A DNA stretch of 64,000 nucleotides from Methanobacteriota archaeon. GTDB taxonomy: Archaea > Thermoplasmatota > Thermoplasmata > UBA10834. Both the position numbers and the translations under genes were made by a program. The notes beneath the pieces were generated by a model, which saw nothing but the letters and a program-made list of their open reading frames with translations, was not told the origin of the DNA and did no database searches. Of the stretch, positions 4,964-19,747 are shown piece after piece (within the stretch, counting starts at the first letter, position 1; every line of letters begins with the position of its first letter). Location of the stretch: positions 1,503,682-1,567,681 of the forward strand of contig CP070748.1 of NCBI GenBank assembly GCA_020348345.1, given 5' to 3'.

Positions 4964-4980
4964 CCAAAGGTTAAATAATC
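4964..4980 (+). promoter_or_regulatory. BRE/TATA-like element upstream of the V4R gene
   Basis: CCAAAGGTTAAATAATC is centred ~33 nt upstream of ATG 5008. The same CCAAAG-N-TT(T/A)A(T/A)A(T/A)AA pattern occurs at 37204 and 60583. Implies a very short leader. Confidence 0.35.
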
Positions 4981-5007: not shown

Positions 5008-5421
5008 ATGAAATTCGTCAAGTATTCACAGTCTGAGTTCGAGGAGATTCGTAGGCTTTACGAGAGCGTCATGGCACAAGCGTGCCATGGACTGTTCTTC
5101 AGAGAGGGCATGATACTTGGTGAAGAGATTTCGAAGATCGCATTGCAGGAGCCCGACAAGTACTTCGAGATCTGTGCAAATCTCTTGCGCGCGAAGGGAT
5201 GGGTCGACAACGTGGTCTTCCAGGAGTCGAGCGTCGTCGTCGAGGGCTCCTTTGAGATATGCACTTCGTCTGACGACGCCACGTGCCACCGGCTGCGAGG
5301 CATCGTGCGCAGGATGTATGAAGGGCGCTTGCGGAAACGGATGCACTGTGAGGAGATTGAGTGCACCAGCAGAGGAGACAAACACTGCGTCTTCAAGGTG
5401 GAACCTGTGGGAGGGGACTGA
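5008..5421 (+). CDS. V4R (4-vinyl reductase) domain protein
   Basis: 137 aa. C-terminal V4R signature TCHRLRG...EEIECTSRGDKHCVFKV. Paralogous motif to the N-terminal half of ORF 18336..19268. Confidence 0.75.
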   Translation: MKFVKYSQSEFEEIRRLYESVMAQACHGLFFREGMILGEEISKIALQEPDKYFEICANLLRAKGWVDNVVFQESSVVVEGSFEICTSSDDATCHRLRGIVRRMYEGRLRKRMHCEEIECTSRGDKHCVFKVEPVGGD

Positions 5422-5770
5422 AACGGAGCTAAAACCGGCGCTGCGCCAACTCAGGGATGAATTCGGAGCCTTCGCTTCCGCAATCGTGAGCCGAGACGGC
5501 TTGATAATGGCTGGCGACATACCCGATGACATTTCGGGCGAAACCTTCGGCATAATGTGTGCCACGCTCCTCGGAGCCGCATCGACCGCGCACTCGGAGC
5601 TCAAGGTCGGCACTCCGCACGGCATCGTGGTCGAGAGCGACGATGCCATGATGATCGTCGTGGGCGCCGGAAGAAAGGCTCTCATCGTCTCCGCCATGCC
5701 GCGCGAGGTCGATTGTGACGCGGCGAGGAAGAAGCTAGAGGAGTTCGCGGAGACGATAAAGCTCATCTGA
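5348..5770 (+). CDS. Roadblock/LC7 (MglB-fold) domain protein; start codon unresolved
   Basis: Distal part of track ORF 5117..5770. LRQLRDEFGAFASAIVSRDGLIMAGDIPDDISGETFGIMCATLLGAASTA...IVVESDDAMMIVVGAG fits Roadblock/LC7. In-frame starts are ATG 5318, GTG 5348 and TTG 5357. All lie inside the V4R gene. Confidence 0.65.
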   Translation: MRRLSAPAEETNTASSRWNLWEGTETELKPALRQLRDEFGAFASAIVSRDGLIMAGDIPDDISGETFGIMCATLLGAASTAHSELKVGTPHGIVVESDDAMMIVVGAGRKALIVSAMPREVDCDAARKKLEEFAETIKLI

Positions 5771-17823: not shown

Positions 17824-18339
17824 ATGCCCCCTCAGAAGTACATATTGAAGGTTTGCCTGCTAGGTGACGGCGCGGTCGGCAAGACGAGTCTCGTAAGGCG
17901 TTTCGTCTTCAACGCCTTTGACGACAAGTACCTGCAGTCGTTTGGAACAAAGGTGTCCAAGAAGACTGTGCTCCTCGAGGATGCCGAGGTGAACCTGATG
18001 GTATGGGATATTCTGGGTCAGCGGACGCAGAAGAACCTTCATGCGGCGTACTACCGAGGTGCCTCGGGGGCACTCGCCGTTTGCGATTGCACCCGCCCCG
18101 AAACGCTGCAGTCACTGTCTTCCTGGATTGACGGCTTTCTTTCGGCGGTTGGCGAGGCGCCGATAATCGTTCTGGTGAACAAGAGCGATCTGGATCCAGC
18201 ATTTCCGCTCGATGATGTCAGGTCATTCTCCGATTCGATCGGCTCGCTCTTCATGGAGACGAGCGCCAAGACGGGGGAGAATGTCGAGGAGGCGTTCGCC
18301 GAGATTACCAGAAGGATGGTGACGGGGGATTCTGAGTGA
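17824..18339 (+). CDS. Ras/Rab-like small GTPase
   Basis: 171 aa. G1 GDGAVGKT, switch-I T in FGTKV, G3 WDILGQ, G4 NKSD, G5 TSAK. This is the full Ras-superfamily motif set and order. Confidence 0.85.
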   Translation: MPPQKYILKVCLLGDGAVGKTSLVRRFVFNAFDDKYLQSFGTKVSKKTVLLEDAEVNLMVWDILGQRTQKNLHAAYYRGASGALAVCDCTRPETLQSLSSWIDGFLSAVGEAPIIVLVNKSDLDPAFPLDDVRSFSDSIGSLFMETSAKTGENVEEAFAEITRRMVTGDSE

Positions 18340-19268
18340 GGGCCATACCTTTCTTCGTGATGCCTGGCATCGCCCTCTCCCACCTGAGGGAGGAGCTTGA
18401 GATAACCGAGGGCGATCACAGGGCTAAGCTAATGTTATACAGGTACGGTCAGAGATGCGGCAGAGCGTTGGTTGACAGCTATGGTCTGGAATGCTCCGCT
18501 CTTGAAGAGGTCAAGGCGTTAATCGGTCCTATATGGATGGAGGCAGGTCTCAGCAGGATCCGGATCGAATCAGCGGAGGAGACGGAACTTGTCGTGAATC
18601 TGGACGAATCGGTGGAGTCCAAGGAGGGCAACACATGCGACTTCGCCCGCGGGTATCTATCCGGAATCGTATCACAGCTCACTGCCAAGCGCTTCGAGGT
18701 GGATGAGATCGAATGCGCCAGTCGTGGCTATCTGTCCTGCGTTCTGCAGGTGTATGAGGTGGTGGACAACCTTCGTCCTTCCAGACAACCCGACGTAGGC
18801 ACGGAAAGGAAGTACAATCTCGAGACCGGCTACTCCTACCTGATAAAGGAGGAGATACCGGACCAGTCATTCGATATGTTCGTCGACGCCTATAGACACG
18901 GCATCCCGTCCCTCTGTGTAACTCGCGAGTATCCAGAGAAGGTGAAGGAAAAGTACGACATCCAGGGAGCTCCGTTCCTATGGCTCTCAATGGATCAGCA
19001 GAAGAGCTACTCCCGCGATCCATCCAACCTGGCACTGTTATACTCCGACATCAAGACCTTCGTGATCGAGAACCCGGGATGTATAATACTCCTCTCGGGC
19101 CTCGAGTATCTGGTGTCCCAGAACGGATTCACGAAGGTGTTGAAGCTATTGCAGCACATGAACGACAAGGTCGCCGTGACAGATTCCATTCTGCTGGTGC
19201 CTGTGAGCCCTCTCACCCTCATGGAGCAGGACCTCAAGATGCTGGAGAAGGAGCTGCGCTCCTTCTAG
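18336..19268 (+). CDS. V4R domain :: DUF835 domain fusion protein
   Basis: GTG start overlaps the GTPase stop (GTGA). N-terminal half carries V4R (TCDFARGYLSG...DEIECASRGYLSCVLQV). C-terminal half is DUF835-like (YLIKEE...CVTREYPEKVKEKY...FLWLS...ILLSGLEYLVSQNGF...LLVPVSPLTLMEQDLKMLEKEL). Confidence 0.75.
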   Translation: MRAIPFFVMPGIALSHLREELEITEGDHRAKLMLYRYGQRCGRALVDSYGLECSALEEVKALIGPIWMEAGLSRIRIESAEETELVVNLDESVESKEGNTCDFARGYLSGIVSQLTAKRFEVDEIECASRGYLSCVLQVYEVVDNLRPSRQPDVGTERKYNLETGYSYLIKEEIPDQSFDMFVDAYRHGIPSLCVTREYPEKVKEKYDIQGAPFLWLSMDQQKSYSRDPSNLALLYSDIKTFVIENPGCIILLSGLEYLVSQNGFTKVLKLLQHMNDKVAVTDSILLVPVSPLTLMEQDLKMLEKELRSF

Positions 19269-19282
19269 GTTGAGCAGATAAG

Positions 19283-19747
19283 GTGATAATGATTTCGAAG
19301 TATGGTCTTGTCATCTGTCCCGCATGCGGCAAAGCCCGCGGTGTGATAGCAAGCCGGAAGACCTCCTCGTGTCCCTGTGGTCGGCAGGTGAAGATACGCA
19401 AGTCTATGATCAAGTTCAGGACGGATTCCCCAATTGAACTCGCGGAGATGGTCGCTCAGGCGAACGCGCAGCTCGCAAGCGGGAAGAAGCTCAGGCGCTC
19501 GAAGACCAGAGCGTCATCAGATCCTTGCGTAAGGGTCGCGCAACGCGTAATGTCGGTCAGCGGCTCGTCGGAGAGGGCTGAAGCTATCGCGCGCGAGCTC
19601 ACCGACGAGATCGGCGATTTTGGCCTCGAGGAGATGCGCCGCGTCCTTGAGGTACTAGGCAGAAACAATCCCGAGGATGTGATGACCAAGCTCAAGGAGG
19701 GCAGTCTGATATACGAGATCAGCGAAGGACGGTTCAGAATCGCGTGA
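19283..19747 (+). CDS. zinc-ribbon protein (possibly DUF1922-like), third gene of the GTPase operon
   Basis: 154 aa, 14 nt after the previous gene. ICPACGKARG...SCPCGRQV is a four-Cys ribbon, followed by a helical C-terminal half. GTG 19283 or ATG 19289. Confidence 0.55.
   Translation: MIMISKYGLVICPACGKARGVIASRKTSSCPCGRQVKIRKSMIKFRTDSPIELAEMVAQANAQLASGKKLRRSKTRASSDPCVRVAQRVMSVSGSSERAEAIARELTDEIGDFGLEEMRRVLEVLGRNNPEDVMTKLKEGSLIYEISEGRFRIA

Follow-up and report, generated by a model that had tools for sequence, protein, structure and literature searches.

A two-gene operon encoding a stand-alone V4R protein and a Roadblock/LC7 (MglB-fold) protein lies at positions 5008–5770 of the 64,000-nt stretch of DNA analyzed here, which comes from an uncultured Thermoplasmata archaeon (contig CP070748.1, hereafter the window). 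The V4R gene (137 aa) occupies 5008–5421 on the forward strand and is followed on the same strand by the Roadblock gene (115 aa plus stop) at 5423–5770. Comparison with relatives leaves hardly any doubt that the two genes form a real coupled operon, and it is quite probable that the second one is initiated at or next to an ACG triplet. Overall we favor, with moderate confidence, a model in which this translationally coupled operon specifies a sensor-adaptor complex working with a nucleoside triphosphatase (NTPase). Since the pair is also retained in genomes that lack Ras-like GTPases altogether, this partner need not be one of them.

A conserved two-gene unit

The product of the first gene, which ends in ...EEIECTSRGDKHCVFKVEPVGGD, matched Pfam V4R (PF02830) with an E-value of 1.1e-11 and 45.1 bits (cut-off 31). 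The second frame lies in +1 relative to V4R, contains ...FASAIVSRDGLIMAGDIPDD... and closes with a stop codon at 5768–5770; it matched Robl_LC7 (PF03259) with an E-value of 3.1e-8 and 33.7 bits (cut-off 23). The original prediction, made by reading the DNA without database searches, had placed a V4R gene directly next to a Roadblock/LC7-like region here. Its coordinates were correct, and both family assignments held in the profile searches that it had proposed as a check. It had further described the two genes as physically overlapping. This description fits the open frame of the Roadblock gene, which extends back to 5117, but not the coding sequences, which most likely do not overlap: the conserved Roadblock protein starts one nucleotide past the V4R stop.

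The relatives in our genome collection are metagenome-assembled genomes (MAGs) of uncultured Thermoplasmata/Thermoplasmatota belonging to UBA10834, RBG_13_57_23, Ca. Sysuiplasma and Ca. Lutacidiplasma, together with one Methanomassiliicoccales MAG. When 40 relatives were searched, 40 of the 41 genomes gave a match to Roadblock, and a V4R gene was found directly upstream of the Roadblock orthologue, on the same strand, in all 30 loci fetched from whole-genome relatives. Among 80 further loci from a species-level collection, the same adjacency was observed in every one of the 79 that have upstream sequence. Other classes of the phylum have the pair as well (G043, G052, G079), and the order V4R then Roadblock is kept across Thermoplasmatota, the gap ranging from -8 to about +30 nt. 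This adjacency is far beyond chance. The flanking genes, coding for AMMECR1, dihydroorotase, aldehyde:ferredoxin oxidoreductase and ArsA, are on the opposite strand and syntenic within the family only, and no third conserved co-directional gene was found beside the pair among the relatives' loci. Within the genus, both genes are under strong purifying selection: Roadblock has a ratio of nonsynonymous to synonymous substitution rates (dN/dS) of 0.083 and V4R one of 0.065, and dS, at about 1.4, is near saturation at synonymous sites. Together, these results show that V4R and Roadblock constitute an autonomous, selected two-gene unit.

The spacing of the two genes points to translational coupling. 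The V4R stop codon (TGA, 5419–5421, forward strand) leaves a gap of 1 nt between its end at 5421 and the Roadblock start at 5423. Gene pairs spaced by -8 to +10 nt are translationally coupled via termination-reinitiation, as experiments in Haloferax and E. coli have demonstrated (PMC10666635), and the junction falls within this range. A Shine-Dalgarno-like GGAGGGGA (5410–5417, forward strand) is embedded in the final V4R codons (Gly-Gly-Asp), its GGAGG ending 8 nt before the Roadblock start. A similar GGAGG(G/T)GA-like sequence is found about 8 nt before the start, within the V4R tail, also in relatives with canonical Roadblock starts. Complementarity was judged against the general archaeal anti-Shine-Dalgarno sequence, the 3' end of the 16S rRNA being absent from the source assembly (1.70 Mb, scaffolded, 30 gaps of 100 N), in which the 16S rRNA gene was not found. 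Upstream of the pair, inspection of the sequence revealed a TATA-box-like TTAAATAA (4971–4978, forward strand) about 30 nt before the V4R ATG. If this candidate promoter is used, the V4R leader would be very short or absent.

The start of the Roadblock gene

From a non-conserved ATG at 5318 up to an internal GTG at codon 22, the Roadblock frame is free of ATG, GTG and TTG codons, and the conserved protein sequence (T-E-L-K-P-A-L-R...) starts straight after the V4R stop. Sister genera carry an ordinary start at the homologous codon, 1–5 nt past the V4R stop, so that the protein reads M-E-L-K-P...; this codon is ATG in most of them and TTG in one genus, and it is GTG in one species of the genus studied here. 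The ACG at 5423–5425 (forward strand) aligns with these canonical starts as a putative non-canonical initiation codon, and the Roadblock coding sequence seems to begin there. Across relatives, the start-codon tally is ATG 18, TTG 6, GTG 2, ACG 12 and CTG 2. ACG occupies the start position in 10 of the 11 species of this genus and in one other species. CTG does so in two other Thermoplasmata species (L050, TGA t CTG GAG...; L056, TGA c CTG GAA...), where a canonical start is absent nearby. Several ACG species have an in-frame stop 3–6 codons before the ACG; in one, the stop is 4 codons before it and the first 40 codons are free of canonical starts. The far-upstream ATG at 5318 was rejected as the Roadblock start since it lacks conservation and, in relatives, is separated from the gene by stops. 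An apparent frameshift caused by a sequencing error in the GGGG run was also rejected, as 11 species share this junction.

Selection on the disputed segment is consistent with translation from this point. Codons 2–21, which make up the first helix, have a ratio of nonsynonymous to synonymous polymorphism (pN/pS) of 0.145, compared with 0.168 for the remainder of Roadblock; they are thus under the same purifying selection as the remainder, acting on the protein, and therefore appear to be translated. Among the 46 conserved fourfold-degenerate codons of both genes in the ten ACG species, only the ACG and a GGA (V4R Gly135, in the GGAGG site) are invariant, and ACG is not the preferred threonine codon (ACC 38, ACG 19). 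In a maximum-likelihood tree, the ten ACG species and the GTG species form one clade (support 99/100) with the GTG species nested inside it, which indicates that ACG is ancestral to the genus; the CTG species are nested in a TTG-start clade. Public gene calls for Roadblock vary in length, between 87 and 134 aa, only within the ACG genus and are uniformly 115 aa elsewhere. An ACG start would account for these erratic lengths, as annotation pipelines miss such starts. In E. coli reporters, ACG can initiate with methionine (bioRxiv 10.1101/063800).

A junction scan surfaced a comparable case in the same genome, outside the window: a CooC/AcsF-type ATPase gene at G000:C1:1397099-1397863. Its frame opens only two codons ahead of an ACG that shares one base with the upstream TAA and is preceded, at 6 nt, by GGGGGTGA, and no canonical start was found ahead of its Walker A motif (residues 9–17). 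Orthologues in relatives (L128–L139) carry ATG at exactly this codon in another genus and CTG in G013. Judging from these alignments, putative near-cognate starts recur in the family.

Two observations weigh against an ACG start. ACG is a very weak initiator in bacteria. Genome-wide scans for GGAGG, a spacer and ACG before long open frames gave no excess of ACG over other codons, and the stricter gene-junction scan for Shine-Dalgarno-led ACG was statistically unenriched, though it did surface the CooC-like gene. ACG starts are hence rare cases and not a general habit. A literature search on ACG start codons in archaea returned nothing relevant. Among the 31 tRNAs of the gapped assembly, which were checked for an initiator-like tRNA for ACG, there is one Met(CAT) and no Thr(CGT), a result that bears on the question neither way. 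As a side observation, the 31 tRNAs are all that ARAGORN predicted in this genome; among them are a putative tRNA-SeC(tca) and a call whose anticodon has four bases.

The same junction could also be read as an RF2-like programmed +1 frameshift at GGA GGG GAY TGA, which would produce a single V4R-Roadblock fusion with no separate initiation of Roadblock. The position of Roadblock in the +1 frame, the lack of a canonical start and the conserved Shine-Dalgarno-like GGAGGGG directly ahead of the last sense codon and UGA would all suit such an event. However, the P-site codon varies (GAC, AAC, GAT, GGT, GAA), none of its forms being able to re-pair after a +1 shift, and the Shine-Dalgarno-like element abuts this codon, whereas RF2-type frameshifting needs CUU U with such an element 3 nt upstream. 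Sister genera encode Roadblock in any of the three frames (0, +1 or +2), starting from a separate ATG, TTG or GTG at the homologous codon, so that separate proteins are the conserved state. A frameshift would also leave the invariant third base of the ACG unexplained, and no fused homologue was found among 5.8 billion proteins. Frameshifting was rejected on these grounds and we consider it very improbable.

Even less credit can be given to the idea that the ACG is converted to AUG by C-to-U RNA editing, or that this genus has a Roadblock cistron that is no longer expressed or is in decay. Either would be compatible with the absence of a canonical start, and editing of ACG to AUG at start codons does occur in plant organelles. 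To our knowledge, C-to-U editing of mRNA is not known in archaea, which counts against editing, and decay is contradicted by the dN/dS of 0.083, by the intact 115-codon frame in 11 of 11 species and by the saturation of synonymous sites.

Under initiation at the ACG, ribosomes that end V4R synthesis at the TGA (5419–5421), or that are held by the GGAGG, would start Roadblock at 5423, by either termination-reinitiation or Shine-Dalgarno-led near-cognate initiation. Roadblock synthesis would then be tied to V4R synthesis, probably at a lower or fixed ratio. Known termination-reinitiation pairs (Huber et al. 2019, 2023) have in common with this one the +1 nt distance, the ribosome-binding site within the upstream gene and the expectation of a complex. 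They differ from it in the restart codon, which here is ACG (CTG in two other species) and has been kept through the radiation of the genus.

Folds of the two proteins and a putative complex

V4R contains the residues C93-H94, C114, E116, C119 and C127, all of which are invariant in an alignment of 18 orthologues save C114, which is nearly so. The motif has the same form, Cys-His...Cys-x-Glu-x-x-Cys...Cys, as the zinc site of the V4R sensor domains of PoxR and MopR. The protein thus combines the Cys/His zinc-type site and the alpha/beta sensor fold of the V4R family, and it is predicted to be a ligand-binding sensor with a zinc-site-like center, metal and ligand binding being predictions alike. 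The closest solved sequence is MJ1460 (2osd, E-value 1e-3). An AlphaFold2 model was obtained for a natural orthologous chain in which both genes are in one frame, the single TAG between them being read as Gly for modelling. Both folds are confident in this model (mean predicted local distance difference test score 84.7), confirming the V4R and Roadblock folds of the original prediction at the structural level. The V4R half matches the phenol-sensor domains of DmpR, MopR and PoxR; TRAPPC3 is not among the 50 matches listed. Unlike DmpR, MopR and PoxR, V4R is here a stand-alone protein of 137 aa that lacks an AAA+ or DNA-binding output. The Bet3/TRAPPC3 fold is related to V4R. TRAPPC3-like proteins of Thorarchaea form homodimers that bind zinc and contain ligand cavities, and the V4R motif resembles the zinc site described for them and for PoxR (PMC10933270).

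The Roadblock protein has the secondary structure H-E-E-H-E-E-E-H in the orthologue model, corresponding to the full-length family fold with a C-terminal helix. Profile searches matched it to the Asgard Roadblock structure 7f8m (3.8e-13; also 9jue and 7yh1), to Streptomyces CvnB5 (1.4e-5), to dynein Roadblock and, weakly, to MglB. The Roadblock half of the model aligns with MglB and Asgard Roadblock at TM-scores of 0.75–0.88; on MglB, including chains of MglA-MglB complexes, the values are 0.75–0.85 with a root mean square deviation of 1.6–1.9 Å over about 114 residues. MglB, CvnB and the Asgard Roadblock homodimers (7f8m, 7yh1, 9jue) belong to the same Pfam family and have the same full-length fold with C-terminal helix. 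Unlike MglA-MglB and the conservons, Roadblock has here no neighboring small GTPase, histidine kinase or DUF742 protein, and its invariable partner is V4R. Nor is the locus arranged as an actinobacterial conservon (CvnA-D: sensor kinase, Roadblock, DUF742, GTPase), its flanks being the opposite-strand genes for AMMECR1, dihydroorotase and aldehyde:ferredoxin oxidoreductase.

The gene arrangement suggests, slightly more strongly than it leaves in doubt, that the two products form a heteromeric complex. Coupled gene pairs are 8-fold enriched for such complexes in Haloferax (PMC10666635). The single-chain model with its natural 2-residue linker reached a predicted template modelling score (pTM) of 0.73, a value obtained without an error map. 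A distant orthologue modelled as a single chain with a 12-residue linker reached a lower pTM of 0.60, likewise without an error map. What counts against a complex is that no natural V4R-Roadblock fusion was found when an artificial concatenate was used as query against the 5.8 billion proteins (25 matches, V4R only).

In 16 loci (L049, L053, L055, L073-L076, L079-L081, L086, L088, L092, L097, L107, L108), V4R and Roadblock share a frame, with one TAG and 1–10 more codons between them. Read-through of the TAG would give a natural V4R-Roadblock fusion in these loci. The same-frame share, about one third of loci, equals the chance expectation.

In the favored sensor-adaptor model, V4R and Roadblock would each form a dimer, the first docking onto the second. 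The signal perceived by V4R would be small and hydrophobic or depend on a metal, and an NTPase would be contacted through Roadblock as the platform. This sensor-to-NTPase regulatory role is proposed tentatively, with less confidence than the complex itself. The eukaryotic TRAPP core and Ragulator, which act on Rab or Rag GTPases, place Bet3-fold subunits beside longin/Roadblock-fold subunits and so join the same two fold classes, which are joined here via a conserved operon, and a Heimdall Asgard protein that fuses longin and TRAPPC3 domains bears a likeness to the V4R-Roadblock combination. The pair differs from TRAPP and Ragulator in being present in genomes without Ras-like GTPases and in having a host that is not an Asgard archaeon. 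Full-text literature searches returned no description of a V4R and Roadblock pairing, although an earlier mention in the KaiC-hub literature is possible.

Candidate NTPase partners

The window also contains a Ras/Rab-like small GTPase gene with the G3 motif WDILGQ (17824–18339, forward strand; Pfam Ras, E-value 3.2e-35), which lies outside the V4R-Roadblock operon. Its stop is overlapped by 4 nt by a gene for a V4R-DUF835 (inactive KaiC-like) protein (18336–19268, forward strand; Pfam DUF835 1.2e-27, V4R 3.9e-10), in agreement with the original prediction of a Ras-like GTPase linked by operon to another V4R domain. The inventory drawn from it, one GTPase, two V4R and one Roadblock, does not hold for the genome, which encodes four V4R domains, two Roadblock proteins and two Ras-like GTPases. 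Most relatives have about five Ras-like GTPases. The third gene after the GTPase and V4R-DUF835, at 19283–19747, encodes a zinc-ribbon protein with a weak DUF1922 match (E-value 1.8e-4, under the cut-off).

The GTPase and V4R-DUF835 module (17824–19268) resembles the V4R-Roadblock pair in that a V4R domain is again tightly coupled to a signalling protein. Its V4R domain belongs to another subfamily, with an XylR_N-like N-terminus and only the C-terminal 45 residues aligning, and it is combined with a GTPase and an inactive KaiC domain instead of Roadblock. Both modules are brought together in a single operon in a distant lineage, G067. There, co-directional genes encode a Ras GTPase (188 aa), a V4R-DUF835 protein (343 aa), a V4R protein with XylR_N and V4R domains (160 aa) and a Roadblock protein (131 aa), all confirmed by Pfam, on the minus strand of L123 (G067:C58, 2081-4588) with gaps of 13–16 nt. 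This type of cluster is kept in close metagenome relatives (L125, L126). In G029 (L113, G029:C26, 2660-3646), a GTPase with a DIIGD G3 motif and no catalytic Gln is followed after 36 nt by a Roadblock paralogue. That genome has at least 35 Ras-like GTPase matches.

These operons bear on the proposal that V4R-Roadblock is a platform of the GTPase-activating protein (GAP) or guanine nucleotide exchange factor (GEF) type, analogous to TRAPP or Ragulator, for the Ras/Rab-like GTPase at 17.8 kb or a paralogue of it. The superposition of Roadblock on MglB, including MglA-MglB complex chains, is consistent with such a role, as is the presence of both the pair and several Ras-like GTPases in nearly all relatives of the class. 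Among 151 genomes sampled evenly from the phylum, 52 have a Roadblock match and 27 a Ras-like GTPase; both occur in 16, Roadblock only in 36, GTPase only in 11 (one of these with 19 GTPases) and neither in 88. The resulting positive association (odds ratio of about 3.6, uncorrected for phylogeny) keeps the GTPase idea alive. The same counts also tell against the original prediction as stated: 36 of the 52 genomes with Roadblock have no Ras-like GTPase, and 11 of the 27 with a GTPase have no Roadblock.

Several observations argue that the GTPase is not the dedicated partner of the pair. No Ras-like GTPase was found within 4 kb of the pair in any of the 80 loci, unlike the adjacency of MglA and MglB. 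In all family members in which both share a contig they are 12–19 kb apart, which reflects ordinary synteny and not an operon. Family f11 (G036, G095, G185; 97–100% complete) keeps the V4R-Roadblock pair, and its genomes have no Pfam Ras (PF00071) match at E ≤ 0.01; a GTPase thus does not accompany Roadblock in every genome. With V4R-DUF835, the GTPase at 17.8 kb is already provided with a translationally coupled partner. This GTPase carries the DxxGQ motif of the Ras-like Rup type, and in a published survey Rup GTPases were coupled to MglB in 0 of 121 cases, compared with 404 of 488 for MglA (PMC4316618). Moreover, the proteins of the GTPase-uniting operons are distant paralogues, with 26–28% identity to the pair of the window. 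As stated, the predicted action of the pair on the 17.8-kb GTPase is not supported, given the separate loci seen here and the retention of the pair where a GTPase is missing. In favor of the prediction are the operon of a distant lineage in which the parts are joined and the gene pair of G029, so that the original interpretation is partly supported overall. From these comparisons, a link between the pair and Ras-like GTPases is possible, at most optional and not obligate, and we regard a GAP/GEF-type platform for the GTPase at 17.8 kb or its paralogue as unlikely.

A second source of NTPase partners is suggested by the paralogues of V4R. The closest one in the same genome (138 aa, 40% identity over the full length) heads an operon at G000:C1:1280893-1282503 whose other products are a KaiC-like ATPase of 224 aa and a DUF835 protein of 169 aa. 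In archaeal signalling, DUF835 is classed as KaiC in an inactivated form (PMC5847659). The genome contains 12 DUF835 copies in 1.7 Mb beside its two Ras-like GTPases, and the GTPase-free family f11 retains DUF835. From its gene neighbors, V4R looks like an exchangeable sensor module placed on different NTPase-related outputs, and the KaiC/DUF835 network is as good a candidate for the NTPase partner as a Ras-like GTPase. In its strict form, this alternative has the pair feeding KaiC/DUF835 signalling and not GTPases, with V4R as an interchangeable sensor and Roadblock as one alternative output or adaptor. However, no KaiC or DUF835 gene adjoins the pair in any locus examined, and both families are so common in these genomes that their co-occurrence tells little. 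We consider this strict form doubtful.

The findings place V4R and Roadblock, each a stand-alone protein and the two coupled across a whole archaeal phylum, among the occurrences of the TRAPP and Ragulator fold classes, far from the Asgard archaea. The role of the pair may not be the regulation of Ras-like GTPases, because it survives in genomes without one. If true, the conserved ACG start would provide a clear example, occurring naturally in archaea, of initiation or reinitiation at a near-cognate codon. More speculatively, and at a probability that we set low, the pair would be a minimal non-Asgard counterpart of TRAPP and Ragulator, a ligand-sensing Bet3-fold dimer on a Roadblock dimer, with Rab-like GTPases under its control in trans. 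This partnership would then be revealed by the four-gene arrangement seen in G067, and the ratio of the subunits in this genus would be set by the conserved ACG restart codon. The use of a Bet3-fold together with a Roadblock/longin-fold protein in GTPase regulation would in that case predate eukaryotes and even the Asgard archaea. The pair offers a small, tractable two-protein system for studying what prokaryotic V4R and Roadblock proteins do.

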